From a virus (lineage: Duplodnaviria; Caudoviricetes), in IMG/VR virus record IMGVR_UViG_3300043394_000652, positions 1 to 60,519 of that record: a DNA stretch of 60,519 nt. One strand, given 5' to 3'. Both the position numbers and the translations under genes were made by a program. Of this stretch, positions 372 to 60,325 are shown piece by piece; position 1 is the stretch's first letter, and every line of letters starts with the position of its first letter. The notes under the pieces were generated by a model. It searched no databases. It worked only from the letters and a program-made list of their open reading frames with translations, and was not told where the DNA came from.

Positions 372-2438
372 ATGAATTTCAATCAATTTATAAATGAAGC
401 CAAAAAATTCAAAATAGGTGATAAATGGGAATGGAACCATGTTGATGGTGCTAAAACCGTTGAGATTATCGAAATTAAGCCTAATGGAGATGTTGTTGGT
501 AAAGTTGAAGGTACCTCAGATAATTTCATTGTTAGAGATGCTAATAAGTATTTAAAGAAAAAAGTGAATGAATCTGTTGTTAATGAAAAACTAGACAAAG
601 CAGCAACTAAGAAAGTGGCTGAAACATTGGCAAAAGCAATTTCAAAACATGATGGTTGCAAATGCACAGTTAACATGAAATCTCTAGAAGAAGCTTCATT
701 TGACCTAGACATTGATGGAGAAGAGTATGACGGAGGTTCATATTATATTAATGATAGTGAAGAAGTAGTTAATGCTGCCGTAACTCCACATGAAGTTTAT
801 GGAACTGTTAATTCTTCGGTTGAAGATTTTATCAAAGGATTAAAGAAGCCTGTAAAGGAATCATTTTTAGATGCATATGATAAAGATTCTGAAGAGTTAG
901 ACGAATCTAAAATTACAGTCAAAAGAAGATATACTGATAATCACCCAGCACACACTGTAGGTAAATTTGCTACTATTAGAAACAAAGTACTTGAAGCAAT
1001 TAAAGATGGTAAAATTTCTAATGAGGAATTTAACAATATTGTTAAGGAAATGACTAAAGATTCTAGCAGATGGTTAAAAAGAAACGCACAGTATTTTAAT
1101 GTATCTGAAGAAGGAATTACGCTTTCTAAGATAGGTATGCGAGTTTTAAACTCAATTACAGTTAATGAAGCTACAAAAAAGAATCCAGAAATTTGGGTTC
1201 CTGGTGGATTTGACAAAGAAATTGGAAAACATCCAAATGCAAAAATTACTAGAAAACTTGTATTAGATGCAGCTAAAAAATGGGATGTAAAACCTGAAGA
1301 TGCAATCGCATATGTTGAATATGGTTGGATGGTTGACTTAGATGAAAATAAACAAAATAATAATATGAACAACTCAAAATTTATCTATGAATCATTCTCA
1401 GAATTCATTGAGAATAGATTAAACGAAAACGATGAATCACTTTTAGAAGCGATTAAGTCTTCAATCCTATCAGGATTCATTAGCATGTATGCTGCTCCAA
1501 AGGATTTATTCAAAGCGTTTTATCAATATACCAAAGCAGATTTAAATGCAATTGAAGATGCTGATTTTATTGAAATGGCACCAAGCGAAGCTTACAAATC
1601 TAAAAATTTAGGTGCAGCTATTGTATTCTATGTTTCAAGAAATGAAAAGGTAAATCCATATGCATCAGCTGAAGGTTATAGTAATGGAATGATTCCTGGA
1701 AATGCTTTACTTGCAATTGCAAATGGTCAAAATGAATTCTTTGCATTAGAATTTGGTAGATATAACCATGCATATGACAGCAAAGGTAAAAGACATAGAA
1801 TTATGGCTAATGTTGGTAAAGATGCAAATAGAAAAGATACTGCAGGTATTAGTAAAGATTATAAAGGATGGAACGCATCAGGTCTTTCAAATGTAAAAAG
1901 AATCTCTGAAGTTGCCGATGTTGCTTACGTTTTACCAATGGATGTTATTAGAGCTAAATATAGCACTGAAGCCATTAAAAGACAAAGAGAAGAAGCTAAA
2001 AGAGGTGCAACTGCCCTAATGGACCCTAGAAAAATTAAAGATGAGAACATCGCTAAATATAAAGAAATCTTAGCACAAAGATTGTTAAACAAAGATGAGG
2101 CAATCGATAAAGAGGTTGAGAAAGTAGTAACAGGTGTTAATCAATTTATTATGGATGGATTTGCAGCTAAGCAAATGTCGCAATACGGTGAGATTATTTT
2201 GGGTCGCGATCCTAAAGGTAGAGAAATTCGTGTAAGTGATGCTACTAATTATCTTAAAAATGTTTTAGAATATTATGCAAAATATGTTAATGCTGCAAAC
2301 GCATTAGAAACTGCAAAATCTAAAGGAGAAGATAAATGGGAAGTCGACTACCAAGAGAAAGAAATTAAACGATATACTCTTTCGACAAGAGAATACTTAA
2401 AAAAATGGAATGATAAAACTCCAAATATTGCATGGTAA
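372..2438 (+). CDS. Large modular putative virion/internal head protein
   Basis: Starts MNFNQFINE, has repeated (V/L/I)NE junctions, and is preceded by GATATATA at 340-347. Confidence 0.55.
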   Translation: MNFNQFINEAKKFKIGDKWEWNHVDGAKTVEIIEIKPNGDVVGKVEGTSDNFIVRDANKYLKKKVNESVVNEKLDKAATKKVAETLAKAISKHDGCKCTVNMKSLEEASFDLDIDGEEYDGGSYYINDSEEVVNAAVTPHEVYGTVNSSVEDFIKGLKKPVKESFLDAYDKDSEELDESKITVKRRYTDNHPAHTVGKFATIRNKVLEAIKDGKISNEEFNNIVKEMTKDSSRWLKRNAQYFNVSEEGITLSKIGMRVLNSITVNEATKKNPEIWVPGGFDKEIGKHPNAKITRKLVLDAAKKWDVKPEDAIAYVEYGWMVDLDENKQNNNMNNSKFIYESFSEFIENRLNENDESLLEAIKSSILSGFISMYAAPKDLFKAFYQYTKADLNAIEDADFIEMAPSEAYKSKNLGAAIVFYVSRNEKVNPYASAEGYSNGMIPGNALLAIANGQNEFFALEFGRYNHAYDSKGKRHRIMANVGKDANRKDTAGISKDYKGWNASGLSNVKRISEVADVAYVLPMDVIRAKYSTEAIKRQREEAKRGATALMDPRKIKDENIAKYKEILAQRLLNKDEAIDKEVEKVVTGVNQFIMDGFAAKQMSQYGEIILGRDPKGREIRVSDATNYLKNVLEYYAKYVNAANALETAKSKGEDKWEVDYQEKEIKRYTLSTREYLKKWNDKTPNIAW

Positions 2439-2440
2439 TT

Positions 2441-2986
2441 ATGAAGCATGTTAAACTATACGAGGAATTCGTAAATGAAAAAGTATACAGACTTACTGGT
2501 ATGTATGGATCAAAGGGTATCATTGGTAAAGTGATGCAGGCTTTTAAAAAGGAAATTGAAAGAGTTAAATTCGAAGGTGATGCTGAAGATACTTTAAAGG
2601 AAATTAATGATGCATGGGAGGATTTCAAAAAAGATGGTATTAAAATCATTTTAGCAGACGTTAATAAGACAGTTAAACACATGGAAGATGTTGTATATGT
2701 TCATGCTGCTGGATTTGCTGGAACTGGAACGTGGGTTGCAGATACAGTAAATAAATTAAATAGCCCAGGTGCATCTACATTATATGTTTGTCTTGATAAA
2801 GAATTCGTAATCAACGTTGGATTTGCTGATGATGTTGATGCTGGAAAATACTCTAGAAAACTTGGTGGAATGACAAACACTGCAATCGCAATCGGCGAAG
2901 ATATTTATGGTGCATTCGATGCCGAAATTGGATATAATAATGTCGAGATTAGAGGAAACGAATTTATGAATATTGACGCAAAATAA
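2441..2986 (+). CDS. Hypothetical protein with MKHVKLYEEFVNE N-terminal tag
   Basis: ATG at 2441 follows the upstream stop and begins the shared N-terminal motif. Confidence 0.7.
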   Translation: MKHVKLYEEFVNEKVYRLTGMYGSKGIIGKVMQAFKKEIERVKFEGDAEDTLKEINDAWEDFKKDGIKIILADVNKTVKHMEDVVYVHAAGFAGTGTWVADTVNKLNSPGASTLYVCLDKEFVINVGFADDVDAGKYSRKLGGMTNTAIAIGEDIYGAFDAEIGYNNVEIRGNEFMNIDAK

Positions 2987-2997
2987 AATTAATAATT

Positions 2998-3345
2998 ATG
3001 CCAAGTACAAGTAAATCACAACAAAGACTGATGGGTATGGCCTACTCTCTTAAAAAGGGAGAAATGGATCCAAAGGACGCAAGCCAAGAAGTCAAGGATC
3101 TAGCTGATTCAATGACACTTCAACAATTGAAAGATTTTGCATCTACCAAACATGAGGACTTACCTGAAAAGGCAGATGAAAATCTAACACCTGCAAATAT
3201 TGGAGGTATGGGAGCAACTCTTTTACCAACAGCAACTCAACCAGGTTCAGGAGATATTTTATCAGGTCCTGGAGACGCAGACGAAGAATATAAAAAGAAG
3301 CGTAAAAAGTTTCTTAAAACATTTGAACAATTTATAAATTCATAA
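2998..3345 (+). CDS. DUF3008-like small phage protein
   Basis: MPSTSKSQQRLMGMA...LKDFASTKHEDLPEK pattern; C-terminal LKTFEQFINS. Confidence 0.6.
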   Translation: MPSTSKSQQRLMGMAYSLKKGEMDPKDASQEVKDLADSMTLQQLKDFASTKHEDLPEKADENLTPANIGGMGATLLPTATQPGSGDILSGPGDADEEYKKKRKKFLKTFEQFINS

Positions 3346-3360
3346 CTCTAGAAAGGAAGT

Positions 3361-3388
3361 GAAACAAAAACGAAAGGCTCAGTATAAT
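3361..3388 (+). promoter_or_regulatory. Putative middle promoter GAAACA-N16-TATAAT
   Basis: Same motif and spacing recur at 3658, 5871, 13565, 17189, 23515 (N17), 32536, 34831 and 48685. Confidence 0.7.
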
Positions 3389-3402
3389 TACTGAGCTTTT
3401 TT
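3374..3402 (+). terminator. Intrinsic terminator overlapping the promoter
   Basis: GCTCAGT/ACTGAGC stem followed by a T-run. Confidence 0.7.
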
Positions 3403-3414
3403 AATTTAAATAGT

Positions 3415-3684
3415 ATGCAATATCTTTTTAGACCTGAAAATTGGAGCGAGTGGTCAAAACTTGCAGTTGAAAAAATCAATAAGGTAATAGATTCATGCGA
3501 ATCTAAAGAACATCTTGATGTTGCAAGAACAATGATTTCTAATTATGTATTTATTACAGCATTGGAAGATGGAACTGACGAGAAGACCCTAGAAGATATT
3601 ATGGAATTGTTTTGGTTTAAATTAGATTTAAAATCAAAATTAATTTCTCAAAAATTTGAAACAAAAGAAACTCAATTAGTATAA
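3415..3684 (+). CDS. Hypothetical protein
   Basis: 89 aa ORF downstream of a promoter motif. Confidence 0.65.
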   Translation: MQYLFRPENWSEWSKLAVEKINKVIDSCESKEHLDVARTMISNYVFITALEDGTDEKTLEDIMELFWFKLDLKSKLISQKFETKETQLV

Positions 3685-3707
3685 TTTAAGAATTTAAAAG
3701 AAACATT

Positions 3708-5135
3708 ATGAAATTTGTAGACGCTTTAAGACAAGAGGACATGGTAACAGAAAACGGAATGGCAACAAACTCAACTTCATTGAGTGCATGTGTTGACCTA
3801 TTTTTTAATATTGGTGCACTTCGAGGCCAAGATAAAACCCGTCTAATCTCTAATTTTTCTAAGGCGTTTAATGAAGATCCTAAACGTGCAATGAAAATTT
3901 TGTTTTGGGCACGCGATGTGCGTGGTGGAGCTGGAGAGCGTCAAATCTTTAGAGATGTGATGGCTTATTTAGCAGAAAACCATGATTTGGCTCTTAAACC
4001 AAATTTACACTTAATCCCAGAATATGGTCGTTGGGATGACTTACTAACACTTGTAGGAACTCGTTTGGAAAATGACGCATTCACATTAATTTCAGATGCT
4101 TTAATCGCTGAAAATGGTTTATGTGCAAAATGGATGCCACGTAAAGGATTTGTAGCTGAAAAGTTACGTAAATTTACAGGTATGTCTCCAAAGCAATATC
4201 GTAAATCTTTAGTTGGTTTGACTAATGTTGTTGAAACTAAAATGTGTGCCGGTGAATGGGATTCTATTGAATTTGGTAAATTACCATCAGTTGCCTCAGC
4301 GCGTTATCAAAAAGCTTTTGGTAAAAATGCATACGAAAGTTATTCAGCGTATATCCAATCTTTGGTGAAAGGTGAGGCTAAAATTAATGCAGGTGCAGTT
4401 TATCCTTACGACATTACAAAATCATTAAAACACGGAAAGTGGGAAGTTGCTAATGAGCAATGGAAAGCTCTTCCAAACTATATGGAAGGTTCTAATGAAA
4501 TGTTGTTACCTTTGGTTGATGTTTCAGGTTCAATGGAAACTGCAGCAGGTGGAAATCCAAATGTGACTTGTATGGATGTTGCAATTTCATTAGGTCTTTA
4601 TATTTCTGAAAGAAATGAAGGTGCCTTTAAAGATGCATTTATTACATTTTCAGATAATCCACAGTTACAAGTATTAAGTGGCTCATTAAAGGATCGCTAC
4701 ACACAGATGGCAAGAGCCGATTGGGGAATGTCAACGAATCTTGAGGCAGCCTTTAAGCTGATTTTAAATCAGGCCACTAAACATAATTTATCCCAAGATG
4801 AGATGCCAACTAAATTGTTAATCCTATCGGATATGGAATTTAATTATGCAACTCGAACTAGCAGTTGGGGAAATGAAACAAAATGGAATCCAACGGCTCA
4901 ACAGATGATTGAAAAAATGTATGTGGATGCAGGTTATAAAATGCCTCAAATCGTTTACTGGAATATTCAATCAAGAAACGGTGGAATTCCAGTTGCATTT
5001 GACAAACAAGGAACTGCATTAGTAAGTGGATTTTCACCAGCAATTATGTCTTCATTAGTTAAAGGTGAAATCACATCACCTCAACAAATTATGGATGATA
5101 CTATCTTAGGCGAAAGATATTCTCAAATAGTCTAA
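3708..5135 (+). CDS. DUF2828-family TROVE/Ro60-like protein with C-terminal vWA domain
   Basis: TENG, RDVRGGAGER, YGRWDDL, AKWMPR, vWA MIDAS DVSGSM, ILSDMEF, YWN and VSGFS motifs. Confidence 0.85.
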   Translation: MKFVDALRQEDMVTENGMATNSTSLSACVDLFFNIGALRGQDKTRLISNFSKAFNEDPKRAMKILFWARDVRGGAGERQIFRDVMAYLAENHDLALKPNLHLIPEYGRWDDLLTLVGTRLENDAFTLISDALIAENGLCAKWMPRKGFVAEKLRKFTGMSPKQYRKSLVGLTNVVETKMCAGEWDSIEFGKLPSVASARYQKAFGKNAYESYSAYIQSLVKGEAKINAGAVYPYDITKSLKHGKWEVANEQWKALPNYMEGSNEMLLPLVDVSGSMETAAGGNPNVTCMDVAISLGLYISERNEGAFKDAFITFSDNPQLQVLSGSLKDRYTQMARADWGMSTNLEAAFKLILNQATKHNLSQDEMPTKLLILSDMEFNYATRTSSWGNETKWNPTAQQMIEKMYVDAGYKMPQIVYWNIQSRNGGIPVAFDKQGTALVSGFSPAIMSSLVKGEITSPQQIMDDTILGERYSQIV

Positions 5136-5162
5136 GATATATAATAAAAATAATATAGAACG

Positions 5163-5483
5163 ATGAAGCATATTAAATTATTTGAACAATTCTTAAACGA
5201 AGGTTCAATTTGGAAAACAAATGATGGTTTAGGAATTAATCAATTAACTGCTAAATCTATTAACTCAGACATTAAGAAGATTATTAAAGCAAAAAACACA
5301 ATTGAAGGTAAAGATGGAAACATTCTTACCGATGATAAAGGAAACATTGTATTTTTTGAAGTAACTTCGATTGGAGAAGAAGTTGCAAAAGAACTTAAAG
5401 GTTCAGTTGTAACAAAAATTGAAACTAAAGATGGTTTAACACACTCTGCATCTTCTAGAGGTGGAGTAATGATAACTATCTAA
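5163..5483 (+). CDS. Hypothetical protein with MKHIKLFEQFLNE tag
   Basis: Shared N-terminal motif; GATATATA at 5136-5143. Confidence 0.7.
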   Translation: MKHIKLFEQFLNEGSIWKTNDGLGINQLTAKSINSDIKKIIKAKNTIEGKDGNILTDDKGNIVFFEVTSIGEEVAKELKGSVVTKIETKDGLTHSASSRGGVMITI

Positions 5484-5492
5484 TAATAAAAT

Positions 5493-5555
5493 TGGTTCCT
5501 TACAGCAACACATATCAATATTTATACAGTTAAGCAAATAAGGAAACGGAACCAG
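5493..5555 (+). ncRNA. Putative small RNA, ACAGC family unit 1
   Basis: TGGTTCC (5493-5499) pairs with GGAACCA (5548-5554); TACAGCAA starts one base after the 5' strand. Confidence 0.55.
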
Positions 5556-5557
5556 GT

Positions 5558-5813
5558 GGATCGGTACAGCAAAAAGTACACAAACTATGACAGAGGTCTG
5601 GAATAAAGTGGAGTTTTAGAATGGTTCGCCCTCTAAAATGTTGAAGCTTCAGACAAGGTGAAGACTAACATCGAAAATAGTCAAACGTCATACCACCCCA
5701 AATAGGAAGTAAGTAGGATGGGTCGAAGGTTTAGTAGACGCTCGCGAAAGCAAAGGCCGAAGACGTAAAAGAGGGTTATTCCGCCGGGAAGAAAATCACG
5801 AACAACGATCCCG
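5558..5813 (+). ncRNA. Putative ~255 nt structured RNA, ACAGC family unit 2
   Basis: GGATCG (5558-5563) pairs with CGATCC (5806-5811), TACAGCAA at 5565-5572, several internal helices, GC-richer than flanks, no ORF in the track, terminator follows. Confidence 0.6.
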
Positions 5814-5822
5814 TAAAAATTA

Positions 5823-5849
5823 AATCCCATAGCAATATGGGATTTTTTT
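5823..5849 (+). terminator. Intrinsic terminator
   Basis: AATCCCATA-GCAA-TATGGGATT plus T-run. Confidence 0.85.
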
Positions 5850-5915
5850 ATGTAAAGTTCACAGTTTTACGAAACATTACCCATAAATTTTATATAATAT
5901 CTAAACAATAATCAT

Positions 5916-6185
5916 ATGAATATTTTAGAAGAAGCTAATCAAATAGTAAATCACAGATCTGAAGAAGCAGATCGTAATTATGGTCCTTTCTCAGAAGGAA
6001 TGGATAGAGCTGCCATGATTTTTCAAGGCATGACTGGAATTGAAGTTACAGGTGAACATATGTTTAAAGCACTTGTGGCTCTTAAGTTTTCTCGCGAATC
6101 TTATAATCACAAACGCGATAATTTATTGGATGCAGTTGCATATATTCAAGGCTTAGACAACTACATTAACGAAAATTCAAAATAA
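5916..6185 (+). CDS. DUF6378-like small all-alpha protein (nucleotide-modification associated)
   Basis: ILEEA...R..YG...LKFSRE...HKRDNLLDAVAY pattern. Confidence 0.7.
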   Translation: MNILEEANQIVNHRSEEADRNYGPFSEGMDRAAMIFQGMTGIEVTGEHMFKALVALKFSRESYNHKRDNLLDAVAYIQGLDNYINENSK

Positions 6186-6186
6186 C

Positions 6187-7281
6187 ATGAAGATTCTATT
6201 TACAGGCTGTACTGCCAAACAAACTGACGATGATGCATGGAAACGTGCAAGAGTAAAACGTATTGATGATAGTTCTATTATCTGCAACTCACTTAGAAAG
6301 CAGGGTTATCAAGTTGACAGAAAAACTGTTAAATGGGGAGATGACCTTTCAGAATATGGATTGGCAATTGTAGGACTTGGGCAATTTGGTTCTAACAACT
6401 ATTCGGGAGAAATCTTTAATGCAATATATGCACTAAAGAATGTTAAGAATGTAATCATTTTTCATGAAGATTGGAAAATCGATGGAACTATGAAATCATG
6501 GACATCAATGTTAAATGAAGAGGTATTTAACAAATCAATCTCTAAGAAATGGAGTGATGGTAGACATTTTTATGGAGGTGTTGGCAATCCAAATTTCAAT
6601 CCAACTGAGGCAATGGAAATTATTCGTAAGGTTGTGGATGGAGAATTTGAAAATGCACTAATTCCTGCATTCGACTGGGGTAATAAAGAAAAGGTTAGAG
6701 ATATTATTAAAGCTAAAAATATTTTTAATATCGACCTAACTCCTTATGTGTTAGAGGATTGGAATATTAGCTTAGAGGTTACTCCTCAACCCAAAGAACG
6801 TAAACATATGCTGGCATCTCTTGTTGACCACAGACCATGGGTACGTAGAAATAAATTAAAATGGCCAGTTGATTATTTTGGTGCAAAGAGTATTAAGGAG
6901 GCTCGTCAACTTGCAACCGAAACTGATGTATTTGAAGCTTGTGGAAAATATTGGGGAATTCTTTGTCCTGAATATCCACATGCAGGTTCTGGTTGGTTCA
7001 GAATCAGATGGATTTATGCTGCAATCCAGCAATCTGTATTATTATCCTCTCCTAAAGACCTAGAGGCACTCGGTCTACCTGTGGTAAACATTGAGACTTT
7101 AAGTGATAGTGAATTGGCTAATTACGCAAAGTCACAGGCAGACACTGTATTGTCTTATATGTGGACTAAAGAAAAGTTCGATACGAAGGTTGATGAAATT
7201 GTAAGCACTTTATGTGATTCATTGACAAAAAACAAAGAGGCAAATACATCAAAAACACTTAAACAAAGCGCTCTTTTTTAA
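6187..7281 (+). CDS. Putative GT-B fold (beta-glucosyltransferase-like) DNA modification enzyme
   Basis: N-terminal MKILFTG Rossmann-like strand, 364 aa size, GILCPEYPHAGSGWFRIR motif, located between a DUF6378-like gene and a dCTPase. Confidence 0.45.
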   Translation: MKILFTGCTAKQTDDDAWKRARVKRIDDSSIICNSLRKQGYQVDRKTVKWGDDLSEYGLAIVGLGQFGSNNYSGEIFNAIYALKNVKNVIIFHEDWKIDGTMKSWTSMLNEEVFNKSISKKWSDGRHFYGGVGNPNFNPTEAMEIIRKVVDGEFENALIPAFDWGNKEKVRDIIKAKNIFNIDLTPYVLEDWNISLEVTPQPKERKHMLASLVDHRPWVRRNKLKWPVDYFGAKSIKEARQLATETDVFEACGKYWGILCPEYPHAGSGWFRIRWIYAAIQQSVLLSSPKDLEALGLPVVNIETLSDSELANYAKSQADTVLSYMWTKEKFDTKVDEIVSTLCDSLTKNKEANTSKTLKQSALF

Positions 7282-7303
7282 TAAAAGAATAAATAAATTT
7301 ATT

Positions 7304-7771
7304 ATGGCAAATATAGACAATGAATGTAAAGATTTAGAAGTAAAAGACTTCTATAATGATTCCACAACACACTTAGCCGATATCATGGAAAACCAAAAGA
7401 AAATGCAAGAGCAAACTTATGGTTTTAAATTTGAAGATATGACGATTAGAGAAGTAATGAACTTCTGGCATGTAAATACGCATGCAGTTATTGACGAAAT
7501 CCATGAAATGACAGATGCATTAGGTGGAATTAAAGATGGTGATGGTAACGCGGTTTGGAAATACTGGAAAAAAGCACATAGCAAATATGAAACTATGAAA
7601 ATTTCCGACCTATCTGAAGGTGATAAAAAGGAATTGTATATGGAATGGGTAGACATTCTACATTTCTTTATTAATTATGCTGCATCAATTGGATTAGATG
7701 CAAAAACAGCATACAATTATTATTTCGCAAAAGCAGAGGAAAACGTTAATCGCCAAAAAAACAACTATTAA
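7304..7771 (+). CDS. gp56: dCTP pyrophosphatase/dUTPase, T4 gp56-like
   Basis: NEC near the N-terminus, DEIHE, AVWKYWK, EWVDILHF and ENVNRQKNNY follow the T4 gp56 pattern. Confidence 0.85.
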   Translation: MANIDNECKDLEVKDFYNDSTTHLADIMENQKKMQEQTYGFKFEDMTIREVMNFWHVNTHAVIDEIHEMTDALGGIKDGDGNAVWKYWKKAHSKYETMKISDLSEGDKKELYMEWVDILHFFINYAASIGLDAKTAYNYYFAKAEENVNRQKNNY

Positions 7772-9168
7772 TGATATTAGATATCGAACAAAGAGAAAAG
7801 GATATTATTATCTCTTATTTTAATGAAAAAGGTGAAGTAGCATTCAAACAATATCCAGTTGACAAATTCCAAAACTGGTATGTATGTGATGACAAAGATA
7901 AAGCTGCGAGCACTCAATATAAAAATTGGGATGGCCGCAGTGTAAAATTAGGATATGGAAAACAATACAACAAGTTTTCCATTCTATATTTTATGGATTC
8001 TCTATCTGAAAGAGATAAAGCAGACCTAAGTGCTTACAACATGCCAAAGACATACTTTGTCGATATTGAAACTGAAATCGTTGATGGATTTCCAAAGGCT
8101 GAAGAGGCTAAAAGTAGAATCCTTTCATTCTCAATTATCACACCAGATCGTAAAGCAATTGTATTGGGTCTTGAAGACATGGATTCTGAAAACATTAAGA
8201 AAATTCAAGATGATACAAATGAGTACTTTAAAGATTTCGACATGGATTGGGAATTTAAGTACCACAAGTTTAAATCTGAATATGATATGGTGTACACATT
8301 CTTGATGAAGTTCTTACCTAAATTTCCAATGATGACAGGATGGAACTTTATTAACTATGACTGGCAATATATTGTAAATCGTTGTAAAAGATTACAGATT
8401 GATATTACAGAAGTTGGAATGACAAACGCAGTTGATAAAACAGATCAAAGACCACTACACATTGGAATTCTTGACTACATGCAATTATATGATAAATATG
8501 ACCGCTCTGTTAAGGTAAAAGAATCTAATTCATTGGACTATGTTTCAAGCCAAGTCTTAAATGTGAATAAGATTAAATTCACAGGTTCATTACAAGATTT
8601 ATATAGAGATAATTTTACAAAGTATATCTATTATAACGTAGTCGATTCTGTATTGGTTTATTATATTGACCAGAAATTAAAATCGATGGAAGTACTTTTA
8701 ACGCTGGCAAATATTACAAACATGCCATTGTATAAAGCAAGTTCTCCAGTGGCAGTTACTGAAGCTATTATGGCAAGAAAATTGGCAGAGCAAGGCATGC
8801 GAATTGGAAGCGAGGAAAAAATTGATGGACAAAAAGATGGTCAATATGCTGGAGCCTTTGTAAAGGAACCGATTCTTGGATTCTATGAAGGTGTAAGTGC
8901 ATTTGACTTTGCTTCCCTATATCCTTCAATTATGCGACAGTTTAATATTTCACCTGATGCATATATTGAAAAAATAAATAGAAGCGAAATTCCAGAACGC
9001 AGAAAAAACAAAGAAGTTATTGTGTGCGATAACGGTGTAGTTTACAATACTGAAGATTCAATTCTTAGAAAAATTTTAAGTGACCTTTATGCTCAACGTA
9101 AAGATTATAAGAAAACATCGTATGAGTATTACACTAAAGCTGACCAGTACAGAAAATTACTAAAATAA
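7771..9168 (+). CDS. gp43A: Family-B DNA polymerase, N-terminal half (3'-5' exonuclease, motif A, first fingers helix)
   Basis: Exo I DIETE, Exo II GWNFINYDWQYI, Exo III YNVVD, motif A FDFASLYPSIM; ends just after LYAQRKDYKK. Confidence 0.9.
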   Translation: MILDIEQREKDIIISYFNEKGEVAFKQYPVDKFQNWYVCDDKDKAASTQYKNWDGRSVKLGYGKQYNKFSILYFMDSLSERDKADLSAYNMPKTYFVDIETEIVDGFPKAEEAKSRILSFSIITPDRKAIVLGLEDMDSENIKKIQDDTNEYFKDFDMDWEFKYHKFKSEYDMVYTFLMKFLPKFPMMTGWNFINYDWQYIVNRCKRLQIDITEVGMTNAVDKTDQRPLHIGILDYMQLYDKYDRSVKVKESNSLDYVSSQVLNVNKIKFTGSLQDLYRDNFTKYIYYNVVDSVLVYYIDQKLKSMEVLLTLANITNMPLYKASSPVAVTEAIMARKLAEQGMRIGSEEKIDGQKDGQYAGAFVKEPILGFYEGVSAFDFASLYPSIMRQFNISPDAYIEKINRSEIPERRKNKEVIVCDNGVVYNTEDSILRKILSDLYAQRKDYKKTSYEYYTKADQYRKLLK

Positions 9169-9205
9169 CAATTATATATAATTAACAAAAATAAAAATTA
9201 CACAC

Positions 9206-10186
9206 ATGACTGGAAATATTTTTGAAAAGCGAATCAATATTTTACCTTATGAATATCCATCTCTACTTGCATTTAAAGATGCAATTAGACACTCATATTG
9301 GATTCATACTGAATTTAACTTTACATCAGATATTGATGATTTTAAAACAAAGGTTAGTGATTCTGAAAGAGAAGTAATTAAACGTGCTATGTTGGCAATT
9401 GCTCAAATCGAAGTTAATGTTAAAACTTTTTGGGCAGATCTTTATAAGAGAATGCCTATCACCGAAATCGGAGATGTTGGTATGACATTTGCTGAATCTG
9501 AGGTAAGACATAAGGACGCATATGCACAGCTACTTAGAATTCTTGGTTTAGAGGAAGAGTTTAAAGATGTTGTTGAAATTCCAGCAATCAAGGATAGAAT
9601 TGCATATCTATCAAAATATCTAGACGGAACTAGAAGTAAGGACAATAAAATGTATACAAAATCTGTATTGTTATTTTCATTGTTTATTGAACATGTTAGT
9701 TTATTCAGTCAATTCTTGATTATGATGAGTTTTAATAAAGAGAAAAACTTATTTAAAGGTATTTCAAATGTAGTTGAAGCTACCAGTAAAGAGGAGGAAA
9801 TTCATGGAAACTTTGGTTCTGAATTAATTAACATTATTAAAGAGGAAAATCCTGAATGGTTTGACACAGAATTTGAAAACTTAATTGACTCAGCTTGTAA
9901 AAAAGCCTATTTGGCAGAGGTTAAAATTCTTGATTGGATTTTCGAGCATGGCGAACTTGAATTCCTTTCAAAAGAAACAATCAAACAATTTATTCAAAAC
10001 AGATTCAATAACTCTCTACAAAGAATTGGTATGAAACCAGTATTCGATGTTGATTTTGTTGAAATTGAAAAAACATTATGGTTTGATGTAGAGGTTACAG
10101 CAACAAAAGAGGGAGACTTCTTTTACAAAAAACAGATTGATTATAATAAAAAGAGCAAATCAATCACAGAAGACGATTTATTTTAA
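9206..10186 (+). CDS. nrdB: Ribonucleotide reductase class I beta subunit
   Basis: ESEVRHKDAY, IEHVSLFSQF and EEEIH diiron-type motifs. Confidence 0.92.
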   Translation: MTGNIFEKRINILPYEYPSLLAFKDAIRHSYWIHTEFNFTSDIDDFKTKVSDSEREVIKRAMLAIAQIEVNVKTFWADLYKRMPITEIGDVGMTFAESEVRHKDAYAQLLRILGLEEEFKDVVEIPAIKDRIAYLSKYLDGTRSKDNKMYTKSVLLFSLFIEHVSLFSQFLIMMSFNKEKNLFKGISNVVEATSKEEEIHGNFGSELINIIKEENPEWFDTEFENLIDSACKKAYLAEVKILDWIFEHGELEFLSKETIKQFIQNRFNNSLQRIGMKPVFDVDFVEIEKTLWFDVEVTATKEGDFFYKKQIDYNKKSKSITEDDLF

Positions 10187-10210
10187 AATTAAAAAAAACA
10201 AAAGAACTAA

Positions 10211-11836
10211 ATGGAATACGAAAGATATTATTGGCTAAATGATGAAAGCCGATTGTTTTTATCTAGAGGTTATATTAATGAAACCCCTGAGCAAAGACTT
10301 AAAGACATTTCTAATATGGCGGAGAGATGGTTAAAAATTGAAGGATTTGCGAAGAAGTTTGAGGACTACATGGCAAGAGGGTTTTACAGTTTATCCACAC
10401 CAGTTTGGATTAACTTTGGAAAAGACAAAGGACTTCCAATTAGTTGCTATGGTAGCAATGTTGATGACACATTAGATAGTATCTTAAACGGAAGTAGAGA
10501 AATTGGAATGATGTCGAAATACGGAGGTGGAACTTCAATTTTCTTAGGAAATATTAGAGCAAGAGGCACACGAATTTCAACAGGTGGAACTGCAGATGGT
10601 CCTGTTCACTATGCAAGAATGTACGATACAACAGTAGATGTATGTAAGCAATCGGAGGCAAGAAGAGGAGCATGTGCAGCATGGTTGCCAGTAGAACATA
10701 ACGATATTTTAGAATTCTTGGATATTGGAATCGAAGGAAACCCTATTCAAAACCTACAATATGGAATTACAGTAACCGACCAATGGTTACAAGAAATGAA
10801 AGATGGTGATGTAGATAAACGTAAAATCTGGGCAAAAATAATTCAAAGAAGATCTGAGTTTGGATTTCCTTACATCATGTTTAAAGACAACTCAAATAAT
10901 AATTCACCATACAAAGAATTAGGACTTGATATTACTGCAAGTAATCTTTGTTCTGAGATTCAATTACCAACCGATTCTTTTAACTCATTTGTATGTTGTT
11001 TAGGTTCATTGAATTTATTACATTGGGATGAGATTAAAGAAACTGATGCAATCGAAACTTATATTCTTTTCTTGAATGCAGTAATGGATGAGTTTATTCA
11101 TAAATCATATAACATGCCAGGTATGAAACGTGCATGGAGATTTGCAAATGACCATAGAGCATTAGGGTTAGGAGTACTTGGTTACCATTCACTTTTCCAA
11201 TCAAAATTAATTGAATTTGAATCGTTAGAGGCAAAACAATTAAACTATGAAATCTTCAAAACAATGAAGGAAAGAAGTGAAGAGGCTTCAAAATGGTTAC
11301 ATGATGAGAAAGGTTATAAATCAATTCGCCCTGGATATGCAAACACTACAATGATTGCAGTTGCTCCAACAAAAAGTAGTTCATTTATTCATGGACAAGT
11401 AAGTATGGGAATTGAGCCAATTAAATCTAATTACTTTATTAAAGACTTGGCAAAAACAAAAACGATTTATAAGAATCCATTCTTAATTAAAGAACTTGAA
11501 AAATATGAATTGAATACACCAGAGGTTTGGGAAGGAATCTTAAAACGCGATGGAAGTGTACAACATCTAGATTTTCCAACCAAAGAAGTATTTAAATCTT
11601 TTATTGAAATTAGTCCAAGTGAGATTGTTTTACAGGCAGCTCAACGCCAACAATTCATTGATCAATCTCAATCTCTTAATTTAATGATTCACCCAAGTGT
11701 ACCAGCTAAGGATATTAATCAATTATATTTGAAAGCGCATGAATCTGGAGTTAAGACACTATATTATCAATTTAGCCAAAGCTCAGCACAATCATTCGCA
11801 AGAGATATTCTTGAATGTGCAAGCTGTGAGGCTTAA
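10211..11836 (+). CDS. nrdA: Ribonucleotide reductase class I alpha subunit (compact, no ATP cone)
   Basis: PISC, SNLCSEI, APTKSSS, DQSQSLN, KTLYY and C-terminal CASCE. Confidence 0.93.
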   Translation: MEYERYYWLNDESRLFLSRGYINETPEQRLKDISNMAERWLKIEGFAKKFEDYMARGFYSLSTPVWINFGKDKGLPISCYGSNVDDTLDSILNGSREIGMMSKYGGGTSIFLGNIRARGTRISTGGTADGPVHYARMYDTTVDVCKQSEARRGACAAWLPVEHNDILEFLDIGIEGNPIQNLQYGITVTDQWLQEMKDGDVDKRKIWAKIIQRRSEFGFPYIMFKDNSNNNSPYKELGLDITASNLCSEIQLPTDSFNSFVCCLGSLNLLHWDEIKETDAIETYILFLNAVMDEFIHKSYNMPGMKRAWRFANDHRALGLGVLGYHSLFQSKLIEFESLEAKQLNYEIFKTMKERSEEASKWLHDEKGYKSIRPGYANTTMIAVAPTKSSSFIHGQVSMGIEPIKSNYFIKDLAKTKTIYKNPFLIKELEKYELNTPEVWEGILKRDGSVQHLDFPTKEVFKSFIEISPSEIVLQAAQRQQFIDQSQSLNLMIHPSVPAKDINQLYLKAHESGVKTLYYQFSQSSAQSFARDILECASCEA

Positions 11837-56279: not shown

Positions 56280-56431
56280 TGGACAAGGACAAAGAAACAA
56301 ATTGGATAATCCTTATAATACTATTGACAGGATTTGCTTTTGGATTTATAGTTGCTCAGGCAATATATGATAAAAGACCAATTACAGAAGAAGATTACAG
56401 AGAATCACAAAAAACAGAATGGTATGAATAA
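56279..56431 (+). CDS. 50 aa single-TM protein (absent from the ORF track)
   Basis: MDKDKETNWIILIILLTGFAFGFIVAQAIY...; overlaps both neighbours at the stop/start junctions. Confidence 0.6.
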   Translation: MDKDKETNWIILIILLTGFAFGFIVAQAIYDKRPITEEDYRESQKTEWYE

Positions 56432-56822
56432 AGTACTTTACATAGTAAGAGGTTTGCCTGGAAGCGGTAAATCTACATTTGCAAAAATTTTAACAGGCGG
56501 CTCAGGTCCAACGCATTATGAAGCCGATATGTATTTTATGCAAGATGGAAAATATAAATTCGATGCATCAAAACTTAGATTTGCACATGAATGGTGCAAA
56601 GATAGGGTACTTATGGATATGATGAAAGAGGTACCAGCCATTGGGGTTTCAAACACATTTACCCAAGAGTGGGAAATGCAAGCATATATGGATTTGGCAA
56701 AAGAGTATGGCTATACTGTATTTACAATCATCGTAGAAAACAGACATGGAGGTGTAAATGAACATAATGTACCCGATGAAGTATTAACTAAAATGAGAGA
56801 TCGTTTTGAAATTAAATTGTAA
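56424..56822 (+). CDS. P-loop kinase (AAA_33 / polynucleotide kinase-like)
   Basis: IVRGLPGSGKST, EADMYF, VSNTF, HNVP; likely start at 56424. Confidence 0.85.
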   Translation: MNKVLYIVRGLPGSGKSTFAKILTGGSGPTHYEADMYFMQDGKYKFDASKLRFAHEWCKDRVLMDMMKEVPAIGVSNTFTQEWEMQAYMDLAKEYGYTVFTIIVENRHGGVNEHNVPDEVLTKMRDRFEIKL

Positions 56823-57240: not shown

Positions 57241-57534
57241 ATGTTAAACAGGAAAAAATTGGCAACTGTAGAAGAGTACATTGCATTAATTTCAAAGGAC
57301 TATCAATTTAATCCAAACCATCCAGATTATTGTGGATTTATTAATATTGACACAAATTCTGCATTTGAATTAGGAGGTGTAGATTTTAGAGAAGTTGCGC
57401 AAAAGATTGCAATGAATCCTGATGCATTTGAGAAAACAGCAAACAAATATGGTTTAACGATCTCATCTGCATATGAAGATGAAATAATTTTTGCAGAATT
57501 GAGCCCAAAACCAAAATTAAACCAATTGTACTAA
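57241..57534 (+). CDS. Hypothetical protein
   Basis: In-operon ORF. Confidence 0.6.
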   Translation: MLNRKKLATVEEYIALISKDYQFNPNHPDYCGFINIDTNSAFELGGVDFREVAQKIAMNPDAFEKTANKYGLTISSAYEDEIIFAELSPKPKLNQLY

Positions 57535-58115
57535 TGAAACTATACACAGAAAAACAGGTTAAAGAATTATTAGATACACAGAAAGGTAATTGTTACGTTG
57601 CAGTTTTAACTGAAACCAAAGATGAGAAGGTTTCAGTTATTGCAGGCTCAGCACCATATCCAGGAGGAGATCAGTTCGATAAACTATATGGAATCGACCC
57701 TGAACAATTACTAATTGAGGACTTGGCAGATAATGAACTTTCATTAAGATATGAACGCTTTAAAAAGGATCTTGCATACTCAAAGGAAAAATACAATGAA
57801 TTGGTTCCAATACTTAATGAAAGAATACAATTGATTGATGCGTTAAAGGAATTAATTGTTGGACTTGCATCTCAAGGAATGTCAACCCTAAATGCTGGTA
57901 ATGATTTAAAGATTGCTGTCGATGAATTGAAGCAATATAAGGAAACTGCAGATAACTTCATGAAACAAATCAATGAAAATAAAAAATTGATTAAGGATTA
58001 TGATGATTGGTCTGAGCGTAAGTTATTTATGCACTGGAAATATTTAACACATTTTAAAGTTGTTAAAGAGGATTGGATAACATGGAAGGCTCAACATAAG
58101 GGCATAATAATATAA
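57534..58115 (+). CDS. Hypothetical coiled-coil protein
   Basis: Translationally coupled ORF. Confidence 0.6.
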   Translation: MKLYTEKQVKELLDTQKGNCYVAVLTETKDEKVSVIAGSAPYPGGDQFDKLYGIDPEQLLIEDLADNELSLRYERFKKDLAYSKEKYNELVPILNERIQLIDALKELIVGLASQGMSTLNAGNDLKIAVDELKQYKETADNFMKQINENKKLIKDYDDWSERKLFMHWKYLTHFKVVKEDWITWKAQHKGIII

Positions 58116-58121
58116 ATAAAA

Positions 58122-58191
58122 GAACCCGCTACAAAACGAGGCGCCAAATTAATTTCGACTTGTACAGTCTGGAAGGTCAGGCCGGGTTCAG
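58122..58191 (+). ncRNA. Putative small RNA, ACAGC family unit 3 (variant TACAAAA)
   Basis: GAACCCG (58122-58128) pairs with CGGGTTC (58183-58189). Confidence 0.45.
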
Positions 58192-58192
58192 G

Positions 58193-58273
58193 GGTCAAGT
58201 AATACGTAATGGCAAAATGGTTATGTCATCCTTAATGGTTGTATTGTTGTAGGTTCGAATCCTACCTTGACTA
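58193..58273 (+). ncRNA. tRNA-like element with acceptor stem and T-arm but no canonical D or anticodon arm
   Basis: GGTCAAG/CTTGACT acceptor; GTAGG-TTCGAAT-CCTAC T-arm. Confidence 0.65.
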
Positions 58274-58287
58274 CTCTAATTAAGCTA

Positions 58288-58331
58288 GTTTATGAACAGC
58301 CTTTGAGGTGGGATGCTCTCATTATAAACGG
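58288..58331 (+). ncRNA. Putative small RNA, ACAGC family unit 4
   Basis: GTTTAT (58288-58293) pairs with ATAAAC (58324-58329); AACAGC starts one base after the 5' strand. Confidence 0.45.
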
Positions 58332-58332
58332 A

Positions 58333-58424
58333 AGTCAGGTGGCGGAATGGTAGACGCATTGGGTTCTCTGCCCGATACCTTTGTTAAGGCAAAAAGCTTA
58401 CAGGTTCGAATCCTGTCCTGGCTG
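58333..58424 (+). tRNA. Atypical class II (Leu-type body) tRNA with anticodon-position CTC; possibly a pseudo-tRNA
   Basis: AGTCAGG/CCTGGCT acceptor, GCGGAATGGTAGACGC D-arm, TTGGG-TTCTCTG-CCCGA anticodon arm, long variable arm, ACAGG-TTCGAAT-CCTGT T-arm. Confidence 0.65.
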
Positions 58425-58439
58425 CAAAAAAATTAAATT

Positions 58440-58646
58440 ATGGAACAAAAAATAAGCAAAGAAACCGATGAGTTTATTGATAAATTAGACCATCTATGTT
58501 GGGAACATCACTTTGAAATTTGGCCAACTGACACCATCAATAAAAGAAATGAAGATGGTTCATATCCTACATTTACTATCCATAATATGAGTACCGGTGA
58601 AAAGGTGAAGCTTATATATGTCGATGGTGACGGAAGAGGTAAATAA
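58440..58646 (+). CDS. Hypothetical protein inside the tRNA-like cluster
   Basis: 68 aa ORF with an AT-rich leader. Confidence 0.6.
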   Translation: MEQKISKETDEFIDKLDHLCWEHHFEIWPTDTINKRNEDGSYPTFTIHNMSTGEKVKLIYVDGDGRGK

Positions 58647-58652
58647 TTAAAT

Positions 58653-58737
58653 AGTCAGGTGACGGAAAATGGTGTGACCTACCTAAGTGCAATGAGTCCG
58701 TTAATGGTTTATACAGGTTCGAATCCCGTCCTGACTA
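58653..58737 (+). ncRNA. tRNA-like element with acceptor stem and T-arm but a non-canonical middle
   Basis: AGTCAGG/CCTGACT acceptor; ACAGG-TTCGAAT-CCCGT T-arm; inner ACGGA/TCCGT stem. Confidence 0.65.
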
Positions 58738-58760
58738 CAAATATAGTGGATATATAATCT

Positions 58761-59708
58761 ATGAAAAAGATTAAACTATTTGAAGAGTTTCTTACTGAAA
58801 AAACTCAGAATGCAGATTTACATAAGATTTATTTGGCAATAAATCCTGATAGTGGTCACCGATGGTGGTCATACAAGGACTTTGCTGGTGATAATTTCTT
58901 TATTCAAGTAACACTTGAAAATTATAAGGATTTAAATATTAATCCAGAATACCCTATCCTTACATACAATTCTAAGGTGACTCAGACCCTATTAGATGAA
59001 GGTCTAATCAAAAAGGAAAATGTTTACAATTTACCAGAGTTTATTAAACAATCTGGTTCTAAGGCAGAATTTCATAAATTGGTTGATGGAGATGAAAATA
59101 TTCCAAAGACTGCACACAATGAAGAGGAAGCCCTAAAGATTGGTTTTCCATTAATTGCAAAACCAGCAGAAGGTCACTCTGGCTTAGGTATTCAAATCTT
59201 TAAAAATCAAGAGGATTGGGATGCTGCAGACCACTCGAAATTTGATGTGTATTCAGAATATATTGATAAAAAGAGTGAGCATAGATTAATTACATTTAAG
59301 GGCAAACCTTTCTTTTGGATGGAAAGATTACCAATGAATGATAAAGCAAAATCAGGAGAGGGTAAGGGAGACGAACAAATGATGTTTAAATACATTAAAC
59401 ATAACGTTGATAATATTCCAACCAAATTCAATGAGTTGGTTGAAAAGTTTGGAACGATCTTTAAGGACCTACCTTATATTTGTTTTGATGTTATGGAAGA
59501 CCAGGATGGAAAGCTTTATATTATTGAAAGTAATAGTCAACCAGGAGTTCCATTTGATTCTACAATTCAGGCATATCGTGTTATTTTTGAAGACTTTTAT
59601 GGTAAAAAGGTAAATGCTGAATGTGATAAAAAACTTTTAGAATTGTCAAAATACATGTGTAATAAAACCCTTGAACTTGACCCAAAAAGATTTGAAATTA
59701 AAGACTAA
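58761..59708 (+). CDS. ATP-grasp (RimK-like) ligase with MKKIKLFEEFLTE tag
   Basis: IPKT, FPLIAKPAEGHSGLGI, SEYID, EHR, FDVM, IIESNSQPG. Confidence 0.8.
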   Translation: MKKIKLFEEFLTEKTQNADLHKIYLAINPDSGHRWWSYKDFAGDNFFIQVTLENYKDLNINPEYPILTYNSKVTQTLLDEGLIKKENVYNLPEFIKQSGSKAEFHKLVDGDENIPKTAHNEEEALKIGFPLIAKPAEGHSGLGIQIFKNQEDWDAADHSKFDVYSEYIDKKSEHRLITFKGKPFFWMERLPMNDKAKSGEGKGDEQMMFKYIKHNVDNIPTKFNELVEKFGTIFKDLPYICFDVMEDQDGKLYIIESNSQPGVPFDSTIQAYRVIFEDFYGKKVNAECDKKLLELSKYMCNKTLELDPKRFEIKD

Positions 59709-60325
59709 TGGAAAGAATTAAATTATTTGAAGAGTTCATTGCTGAAAAACTTGAATGGAAGGATTCAGATGCACCTGACGCAAATGGTAGGTTTAAAGAA
59801 TTATCAATCAAAGATTTGGCTGCCTGGTTAATTAAGACAAGAGACAAAGATTTAAGAAAGATAACAGGTTCTATCAATCAACAAATTGCATTTAATAAAA
59901 ATGACGATAAAGAGTATGTTGATAAAATGGAAAAGGTTCGTCAAGAAGTTTATAAGCAACTTGGTAGAGAGGATTTAATGGAATCTTTAAATGAAGCTGA
60001 GGAAACTTATAATGATTATCCTGCGGCCGCCAAAAAGAACGCTAAACAGGCACTTGAATGGAGAGATAAATATGGCCGTGATGAGGTAGATGCAGGAACT
60101 GCAGTTGGTTGGCAACGTGCAAATCAATTGGCAAAGGGTGAAAAACTTTCAGTTGATGTAATTTCTCGCATGGCACAATTTAATCGTCATAGAAAAAATT
60201 CAAAGATTGCACCTGAATTTAAGGAGACTCCATGGAAGGACCGAGGATATGTTGCATTTTTAATTTGGGGTGGAGATGAAGGAGTTGATTGGGCAATCGA
60301 AAAAATGAAACAATTAAAAAAATAA
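59708..60325 (+). CDS. Putative head-associated protein with MERIKLFEEFIAE tag
   Basis: GTAVGWQRANQLA...RMAQFNRH...WGGDEG domain common in phage head regions. Confidence 0.65.
   Translation: MERIKLFEEFIAEKLEWKDSDAPDANGRFKELSIKDLAAWLIKTRDKDLRKITGSINQQIAFNKNDDKEYVDKMEKVRQEVYKQLGREDLMESLNEAEETYNDYPAAAKKNAKQALEWRDKYGRDEVDAGTAVGWQRANQLAKGEKLSVDVISRMAQFNRHRKNSKIAPEFKETPWKDRGYVAFLIWGGDEGVDWAIEKMKQLKK

Follow-up and report, generated by a model that had tools for sequence, protein, structure and literature searches.

Leader elements and tRNA-like modules in a candidate island of non-coding RNAs from an uncultivated T4-like jumbo phage

Among the RNAs of phage T4 are two small stable species that are not tRNAs, rnaC (species 1) and rnaD (species 2), for which the excerpted text of PMC3014915 records that no role was assigned for decades. 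Both lie inside the tRNA cluster and on the tRNA strand, rnaD beginning 1 nucleotide (nt) past tRNA-Arg and rnaC 6 nt past rnaD. By analogy, they appear to be the closest known case for the locus described here, positions 58118-58737 of a 60,519-nt viral contig (IMG/VR record IMGVR_UViG_3300043394_000652; the whole of this stretch is called the window below). Sequence reading and folding place on its plus strand, in this order, a structured RNA element that we call U3, a tRNA-like module A, a short element U4, a tRNA-like module B, a 68-amino-acid (aa) open frame and a tRNA-like module C (Table 1). Like rnaC and rnaD, the window element stands in line with tRNA-like modules in a T4-type phage and reaches high RNA depth, and in relatives U3 is found directly upstream of real tRNA arrays. 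In addition, the last 93 nt of rnaC give a sub-threshold match to the tRNA model (17.5 bits) and can be drawn with a canonical T arm beside an acceptor stem. Like the RNAs here, rnaC may therefore end in a tRNA-like part that follows a separate 5′ domain, although its minimum-energy fold pairs its ends differently. T4 differs in having no head element of the U3 type. The strongest score of the U3 covariance model within the tRNA region of T4 is 9.6 bits (E 0.42), and a blastn comparison of the window with phage records gave no match to the T4 rnaC/rnaD region; global alignment of the three modules with the tRNAs of T4 itself was uninformative as to their likeness.

Other systems show what a tRNA-shaped module can do when it does not decode. 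In MALAT1/mascRNA, the tRNA-miRNA RNAs of gammaherpesvirus 68 and the t-elements of plant mitochondria, such a module recruits tRNA enzymes and defines the ends of a neighbouring RNA; in handles of the MALAT1/mascRNA type, the module receives CCA and the partner is cut away from it by RNase P or RNase Z. Those handles are eukaryotic, organellar or from an animal virus, and here the 5′ partner seems to be retained, with the module as the 3′ end of the product.

An earlier analysis of the window, which we call the sequence-only reading, proposed as one of two options that these elements are composite molecules resembling bacterial Y RNAs. The likeness to YrlA is that of a non-coding RNA containing a tRNA mimic. 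In YrlA, however, the tRNA-like part is internal and the RNA ends form the Ro-binding stem, whereas the tRNA mimic of this locus is 3′-terminal and carries CCA. When Rfam 15, which is assumed to hold the relevant models, was searched, neither Y RNAs nor YrlA turned up at E up to 10 in 57900-58900 or at gathering scores across the window, and a TROVE/Ro gene (PF05731) was found in none of three records (the window, a 234-kb relative that is 87% complete and a 72-kb relative), with 2 of 14 control genomes positive. The idea of YrlA-like RNAs tethering a Ro/Rsr protein thus shares with this locus the general notion of a structured stem beside a tRNA mimic, and on the evidence above we find it scarcely credible. 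The idea of composite molecules is supported in part by the bridging contigs, the 5′ ends at U3 and U4 and the CCA-ended modules described below; membership of the Y RNAs is not.

The phage and prophage RNAs GOLLD and ROOL often lie near tRNA islands and sometimes have covalently linked tRNAs, according to the excerpted text of 10.1101/2024.12.08.627333. They measure 600-800 nt against 62-74 nt for U3, for which an oligomer is predicted from sequence, and their Rfam models have no match in the window, nor in the loci of 8 relatives at E up to 1.

With moderate confidence, we propose that 58118-58737 is a non-coding RNA island on the plus strand of an uncultivated T4-like jumbo phage, in which tRNA-like modules serve as CCA-receiving 3′ handles, the products are composites of a leader and a tRNA mimic, and U3 is the head element. 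Modules A, B and C would retain what tRNA maturation enzymes recognise (the acceptor stem, the T arm and the GG of the D loop) and act as stabilising handles that form 3′ ends and receive CCA. The precursor would be cut just past each module (after 58274 in the case of A) and the CCA then completed, while the sequences 5′ of the modules would not be efficiently removed, leaving composite RNAs as the main products. These would be U3-A-CCA, ~159 nt long and starting near 58118, a probable U4-B-CCA that starts at 58275, and C, and the U3-bearing RNAs would pair head to head through a hexamer in the apical loop. The nucleases that cut, and the nature of the 58118 end as a transcription start or a cleavage site, are inferred parts of this scheme. 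New here would be the U3 RNA family, its palindrome-switching loop and the shell-and-cargo organisation of the tRNA-like modules; the known kind to which they would belong is that of stable non-tRNA RNAs processed together with phage tRNAs.

The U3 element and its place in phage arrays

U3 is predicted to fold as a three-way junction. A closing stem of 7 base pairs (bp; 58122-58128 with 58183-58189) holds two arms, the first with 5 bp (58130-58134 with 58160-58164), a 2x2 internal loop, 3 further bp (58137-58139 with 58155-58157) and a large loop of 15 nt (58140-58154), and the second a 6-bp hairpin (58167-58172 with 58177-58182) stacked beside the closing stem. The covariance model, R1, was built from 11 sequences and matches 51 copies, 39 of them distinct, across 82 sources; the window copy (58122-58191, 70 nt) scores 95.9 bits, and the 62-74 nt family divides into a long class, which includes the window, and a short class. 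In the model-fitted alignment, 99.1% of cells are paired and 12 of the 21 pairs have changes on both sides, with 127 double-change cells (39.5 in shuffles) and a covariation score that none of 500 shuffles reached; slid registers of the same alignment likewise stayed far below the observed covariation. An independent plain MAFFT alignment gave a comparable picture, with 99.6% of cells paired and double changes in 11 of 24 pairs. Moreover, U3 keeps 81-92% nucleotide identity in relatives in which the upstream protein is only 48-54% identical.

Rfam 15, searched at permissive thresholds in the region and in the loci of 8 relatives, returned tRNA hits for the modules and none for U3, U4 or the larger elements that intervene in relatives. 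In blastn searches with the region, U3-A and a short-class U3, the 50,697 GenBank phage records returned only generic T-arm matches and no U3, so at this sensitivity no cultured phage with U3 was found among them. By these comparisons, U3 is a conserved structured RNA family that is absent from Rfam 15. In 2023, a screen of IMG/VR put forward 8,495 predicted structured RNAs without names, tRNA-like ones among them (excerpted text of PMC10690425), and U3 or the tRNA-like modules may already stand nameless among those predictions.

The arm-1 loop has a further conserved property. In 44 of 45 distinct contexts its 5′ side holds a GC-rich 6-nt palindrome, which takes six forms by lineage (GGCGCC in the window, and CGCGCG, CACGTG, ACCGGT, AGCGCT or CGATCG), several of which swap on otherwise near-identical U3 backbones. 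When loops were shuffled 2000 times, a palindrome arose in a mean of 5.7 of the 45 contexts and in at most 14, and columns 20-25 of the MAFFT alignment are self-complementary in 100% of cells, with double changes at the outer two of the three position pairs. Because six adjacent bases are unable to pair together in one molecule, this switching points to pairing between molecules and suggests kissing-loop dimerisation, in which two RNAs that carry U3 would probably meet head to head. The same palindrome-switch argument supported cross-chain bridges in OLE and GOLLD (excerpted text of 10.1101/2024.12.08.627333), and the U3 hexamers switch likewise. In short-class U3, the loop is reduced to 9 nt, namely two bases, the 6-nt palindrome and one A. 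This is also the format of the loop in the dimerisation initiation site hairpin of HIV-1, where the biology is unrelated; long-class U3, including that of the window, instead has its palindrome in a 15-nt loop. The palindromic loop makes U3 a candidate for a small self-associating natural RNA, of which only a handful are known according to excerpts of two reports (10.64898/2026.07.01.735769; 10.1101/2024.12.08.627333).

The contexts of U3 suggest that it is the head element of phage tRNA and tRNA-like arrays, because modules downstream are frequent and tRNAs upstream are rare. A tRNA or tRNA-like module begins no more than 6 nt downstream of the U3 match in 32 of 45 distinct contexts, whereas only 2 of 42 have a tRNA in the 600 nt upstream. 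The element after U3 is an ARAGORN tRNA in 20 of the 45 contexts, tRNA-Cys(GCA) accounting for 14 of these 20, and many contexts with a real tRNA have more tRNA genes (Leu, Thr, Gly, Glu, Ala) within ~700 nt. In the window lineage, the island of tRNA-like modules headed by U3 stands apart from the main tRNA array. Searching with filters off returned the one window copy and a runner-up of 12.5 bits (E 0.76); U3 is likewise single-copy in the 234-kb and 72-kb relatives, and it was not found in three shorter relative fragments. U3 is a compact and well-supported candidate for an RNA family, and as a marker of the head of phage tRNA arrays it would be a useful landmark for annotation.

Its position also suits a different explanation, in which U3 is a cis-acting 5′ leader (a 5′-end stabiliser, or an element like put or another antitermination signal) that RNase P removes, U4 is an inter-tRNA spacer, and the contigs that bridge leader and module are precursors. 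U3 comes first in the array, is single-copy, lies 3-8 nt from the first tRNA or module and has an A/T-rich, ATAAA-like tract immediately 5′ of it in most contexts. Furthermore, a bona fide tRNA, which needs a free 5′ end and must be released to work, comes next in the 20 contexts of 45 noted above, so U3 may normally be a cleaved leader. A leader of this kind leaves unexplained a hexamer that stays palindromic through six variants, and the RNA depths reported below bear on it in both directions; we consider it unlikely as a full account, though with appreciable weight.

Several minor observations concern the distribution of U3. A GTDB pattern scan gave at least 120 stretches, and of the 80 loci listed, in which U3 was looked for, one contained it: a 637-nt contig of a metagenome-assembled genome of Aequorivita (Flavobacteriaceae; L257:390-458, 66.8 bits), in all likelihood a stray piece of phage DNA that gives no more than a faint hint of the host. 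A lone U3 variant, on the minus strand at L096:6352-6415, has only ACGT in place of the 6-nt palindrome and sits inside a tRNA array with five tRNAs upstream. In U3-headed arrays of real tRNAs (L088, L132, L129, L163, L093, L128 and others), ARAGORN calls the second gene a tRNA-Leu(TAG) of 73-75 nt, which is short, since bacterial-type tRNA-Leu normally has a long variable arm.

tRNA-like modules and the U4 leader

Module A has a 7-bp acceptor stem with a G1-U72 pair, a D-like hairpin with GG, a T arm and A58273 as discriminator, and its consensus fold over 9 homologues contains 24 pairs, 9 of which show compensatory changes. At the site of the anticodon arm it has two conserved pairs and a loop of 4 to 30 nt, with no 7-nt anticodon loop; by this structure it is predicted to be unable to decode, because a 2-bp mini-arm replaces the anticodon arm. 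Module B combines a tRNA-Leu-type D arm, a long variable arm and a discriminator G with a 5-bp stem and a 7-nt loop, UUCUCUG, that is identical in all four copies found and has U at position 37, where a purine is expected in a canonical tRNA. ARAGORN reports B alone in the window (93 nt, 58333-58425) and names it tRNA-Glu CTC, although tRNA-Glu is not known to have a long variable arm; the program reports no tmRNA in the window. The three further B copies with the same loop lie in other contigs, and U4 precedes none of them. Module C has an acceptor stem and T arm like those of B around a degenerate core; in the module finder its acceptor stem is fully paired (7 of 7) and its T stem has 4 of 5 pairs. 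Against the Rfam tRNA model (RF00005, cut-off 29 bits), B passes with 43.6 bits, and A (21.6) and C (23.9) fail. A, B and C keep a shell of acceptor stem, D arm and T arm of the tRNA-Leu type, in which, on the proposed reading, the decoding arm would have been lost or replaced.

A similar shell is repeated across the islands of relatives, which are mosaics. A near-identical acceptor stem and T arm, often with one D-arm block, recur in many modules; in one relative's module this block is 100% identical to E. coli tRNA-Leu genes over 22 nt. The core between the D arm and the T arm varies widely among modules, whose length ranges from 58 to 143 nt, and some cores recur in different shells.

If A, B and C were decaying tRNA pseudogenes, with U3 and U4 as junk between them, one would expect features such as the scores of A and C under the Rfam cut-off, the mismatched T stem of C and a B-type copy in one relative whose T arm is degenerate. 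Decay is nevertheless very improbable in view of the compensatory changes in U3 and in 9 of the 24 pairs of A, a nucleotide conservation far above that of the neighbouring protein, a very high RNA depth and the addition of CCA.

The relatives' islands contain other modules that are not present in the window. Between tRNA-like modules lies a conserved one of ~160 nt (L047:4743-4903, L050:4909-5069, L046:5154-5312 and others), closed by a stem and with visible compensatory changes, and modules of ~170 nt (L048, L055, L063) and ~400 nt (L049, L059, L061, L051) follow U3 or U4; none of these has an Rfam match. In two further tRNA-like modules (L059:1160-1297 and L061:5258-5395), the D loop is split by an insert of ~27 nt between the halves of the tRNA-Leu-type D-arm block.

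U4, which is 58 nt long and joins module B without a gap, is 86-93% identical in relatives and was found in 9 distinct contexts. In all 9 it starts directly past the base that follows a module's discriminator, and in 8 of the 9 a module follows it, the type varying by genome (B-type, A-type or a 66-nt mini-module). Its consensus fold over six sequences reaches -3.9 kcal/mol with 2 covarying pairs, and the single-sequence fold has a z-score of +0.66. A sigma-70 consensus scan listed no site in U4; by eye, hexamers resembling -35 and -10 elements can be seen with a spacer of only 14-15 nt. From sequence and folding, we treat U4 as a conserved, weakly structured leader or spacer.

The sequence-only reading had described U3 and U4 as ACAGC units, by implication two members of a longer series, each adjoining a tRNA-like module at the same spacing. 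The adjacencies stand: module A begins at 58193 after U3, the atypical tRNA, B, begins at 58333 directly after U4, and the survey of contexts above (32 of 45 for U3; 9 of 9 preceded and 8 of 9 followed by a module for U4) shows that both are conserved. The spacing agrees only approximately, with a 3-nt linker past the closing stem of U3 and none after U4, and the repeated unit itself dissolves. ACAGC occurs 45 times in the window, where 64.2 +/- 6.5 copies are expected and all of 100 shuffles had at least 45, and within 58122-58424 it occurs once, in U4 (58296-58300). U3 reads ACAGT, through an A at 58166 that is specific to the window; the other 38 distinct U3 sequences have T at this position, as do most RNA contigs. 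U3 and U4 are not related to each other: the U3 model and the U4 profile each find one place in the window, and no additional copy of either was found there that could represent the implied units U1 and U2.

RNA from the island in freshwater metatranscriptomes

An index search found six metatranscriptome runs, of which four freshwater runs from four studies (X1-X4) were compared; depth here is the per-contig mean of assembled contigs, summed over relatives at least 90% alike, and stretches that contigs leave uncovered in some runs were given no weight. Across the upstream gene it is 0-10 nearly throughout (one X3 bin at the gene start reaches 55), and it rises to 587-10889 over U3 and A (58112-58264), so that U3-A contigs are roughly 100 to 1000 times as deep as the flanking genes in the four runs. 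The first U4 bin, which includes the last 10 nt of A, has a depth of 884-2134, the 3′ part of B 16-368, C 17-2190 and the ATP-grasp gene downstream 2-34. At the far end, 58673-58774 is covered at 319-392 in X1 and 1421-2190 in X4, falling beyond 58775 to ~3 and 3-34, respectively. U3 is thus among the most deeply covered stretches and its adjacency to modules is conserved, which is not how an unstable leader fragment, the outcome that would have told against the earlier proposal, should look.

Contigs that extend at least 31 nt to each side join U3 to A in X1 (record 3, 58118-58258, depth 213) and in X2 (record 12, 58148-58258, depth 1445, zero mismatches), and one contig of depth 13.5 joins U4 to B in X2 (record 15). 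Position 58118 is where contigs begin in three runs (X1 record 3, X2 records 9 and 10, and X4 record 25).

The 12 listed joints that contain extra letters give more information on ends. Six land in the 5′ zone of U3 (at 58118, 58116, 58115 and 58112), four of them coming from position 58274 of A with CA or C between, one from a B-like end (...GGCTA+CCA) and one from a module end of the form ...ACTA+CC. The joint from 58274 through CA to 58118 occurs in contigs of depth 876 (X2) and 2684 (X4), and in X1 and X3 it is represented by loose ends of identical sequence. In two joints a module end plus CCA leads into 58275, the first base of U4 (depth 110 in X1 and 26 in X2), and one X1 joint of depth 3.3 leads from 58420 to 58333, a module 3′ end plus CCACC being followed by the first bases of B, where the CCACC could be a tandem CCA-type tail or include a 2-nt leader. 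Three of the 12 are simply the gene order of a relative (U4 then A). Module ends of the ...ACTA+CCA kind occur in joints of four runs, the CA after 58274 is non-templated, because the genome reads TCTA there, and none of the 12 listed joints has a 5′ end at the first base of A (58193).

As we read these contigs, module 3′ ends are matured to CCA, and RNA 5′ ends lie before U3 and at the start of U4 and not at the first base of A; therefore, the products consist of leader plus module. Relatives encode a nucleotidyltransferase of the PolyA_pol family (CCA-type). The sequence-only reading had offered, as its second option, that the tRNA-like parts are processing signals that release the adjoining RNAs: a part in 3′-end formation and CCA addition agrees with the non-templated CA, and the bridging contigs argue that 5′ release of U3 and U4 by RNase P is at most partial.

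For the explanation in which U3 is a leader removed by RNase P, the same data are divided. The depth of A in X2 is ~4 times that of U3 (9315 against 2010-2252), which fits partial RNase P cleavage or copies of A in other contexts. On the other hand, U3 is otherwise as deep as the modules, the X2 bridging contig is a match in depth for the deepest exact-match contigs of that run, and a 5′ end at 58193 is missing from the 12 listed joints.

The joints could also be real, if a phage RNA ligase closed U3-A-CCA and other leader-module RNAs into circles, or ligated them, and so made them resistant to exonucleases. The depth of the contigs that carry the joint to 58118, its recurrence as loose ends in X1 and X3 and the presence of U3 as a single copy in DNA would be accounted for, and 1.3 kb upstream of the island, at 56352-56822, lies a gene for a 156-aa P-loop kinase (AAA_33, E 5.6e-10) that also resembles, more weakly, PHROG families of polynucleotide kinases and RNA ligases. 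However, B-like and C-like CCA ends are also joined to the 5′ ends of U3 and U4, which makes these joints intermolecular, as template switching would, and the depth of a contig is a mean that does not give the number of reads crossing a joint. We regard ligation as improbable and favour template switching between very abundant RNAs over circles or trans-ligation, because the ends joined to U3 and U4 come from different modules.

Several points weigh against the proposal that composite, CCA-tailed RNAs are the main products. The RNA evidence comes entirely from assembled contigs, which show neither true ends nor strand, and carry-over of DNA is a possible source of the signal. The joints that link the CCA ends of different modules to U3 or U4 may be template switches made by reverse transcriptase, or else could arise from a genome that encodes CCA before U4 or carries a tandem copy of U3-A. 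The excess of A over U3 in X2 and the real tRNAs that follow U3 in relatives count on the same side, and U4, being nearly structureless, could matter as DNA.

If the proposal of composite products holds, our guess is that they provide a stable tRNA mimic that engages a tRNA-binding factor of the host or the phage during infection. A bolder and doubtful extension is that U3 dimerises two leader-plus-tRNA-mimic RNAs head to head into a two-armed, CCA-tailed tRNA decoy, with which the phage would present RNA cargo of any kind on the body of a tRNA, or titrate a defence nuclease or a tRNA-binding factor of the host. tRNA-Leu synthetase does not read the anticodon, so the mimics here and the differently cored modules of relatives could still be charged or bound like tRNA-Leu. 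Such a decoy would be a natural phage counterpart of the engineered tRNA scaffold, and would give T4-type stable RNAs a first testable function. More generally, T4-type jumbo phages of fresh water would carry an expanded, modular version of the T4 stable-RNA theme, and the covariation, palindrome switching, shell-plus-cargo modules and high RNA levels described here turn an old T4 puzzle into testable hypotheses.

Layout of the island and neighbouring genes

The window has an estimated completeness of 21%, a G+C content of 31-35% and long frames that are nearly all on the plus strand. Its T4-type genes encode the Gp20 portal, the Gp23 major capsid protein, a prohead protease, the large terminase and the tail sheath, and relatives reached via neighbouring proteins extend to 234-236 kb; on these grounds the 60.5-kb contig is assigned to an uncultivated T4-like jumbo phage, of which it is a fragment. 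The RNA island sits between a 193-aa gene (57534-58115, with its stop codon at 58113-58115) and the ATP-grasp gene (58761-59708). In close relatives the main tRNA array begins a few kb past the ATP-grasp gene, and the corresponding array of this phage would fall past the end of the window.

Table 1. Features of the RNA island, in window coordinates
Feature	Position	Strand	Basis
5′ end zone of abundant RNA, A/T-rich tail just past the stop of the 193-aa gene	58112..58121	+	Contig starts, head-to-tail joints
U3, three-way-junction RNA (predicted)	58122..58190	+	Covariance model R1, covariation
Self-complementary hexamer GGCGCC in U3 arm-1 loop	58140..58145	+	Palindrome counts across contexts
Linker AGG between U3 closing stem and module A	58190-58192	+	Sequence reading
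tRNA-like module A	58193..58273, then C58274	+	Sub-cut-off Rfam score, consensus fold, CA joints
U4, 58-nt weakly structured leader or spacer	58275..58332	+	Conservation in relatives
tRNA-like module B (the atypical tRNA)	58333..58424	+	ARAGORN, Rfam tRNA
68-aa open frame between B and C	58440..58646	+	Open reading frame listing
tRNA-like module C	58653..58737	+	Sub-cut-off Rfam score, module finder

For the 68-aa frame, Pfam and PHROG gave no match and the islands of relatives hold no counterpart at the DNA level, and the depth of its RNA contigs is 0-19, with hundreds on both sides; it is probably a small inserted gene that lies outside the RNA products. Other small frames occur inside the islands of some relatives (L051, L048/L055).

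A promoter consensus scan gave none upstream of U3. The 10-mer TATATTTACA is repeated in the window, with 30 matches at no more than 1 mismatch where 16.7 +/- 3.8 are expected, and 8 of its 9 exact copies are on the plus strand (sites there include 33574, 50143, 53502, 53873, 54765, 55402 and 55915). Several copies lie ~30 nt before start codons in the block of short genes at 50-56 kb, and the 10-mer, which is absent between 56,200 and U3, also marks the end of relatives' RNA islands; a role as a phage promoter element is probable. Finally, the ATP-grasp gene and the gene after it are 83% identical over their first 42 nt (repeat D5; 58761-58802 and 59708-59749), which gives the two proteins a common N-terminal stretch.

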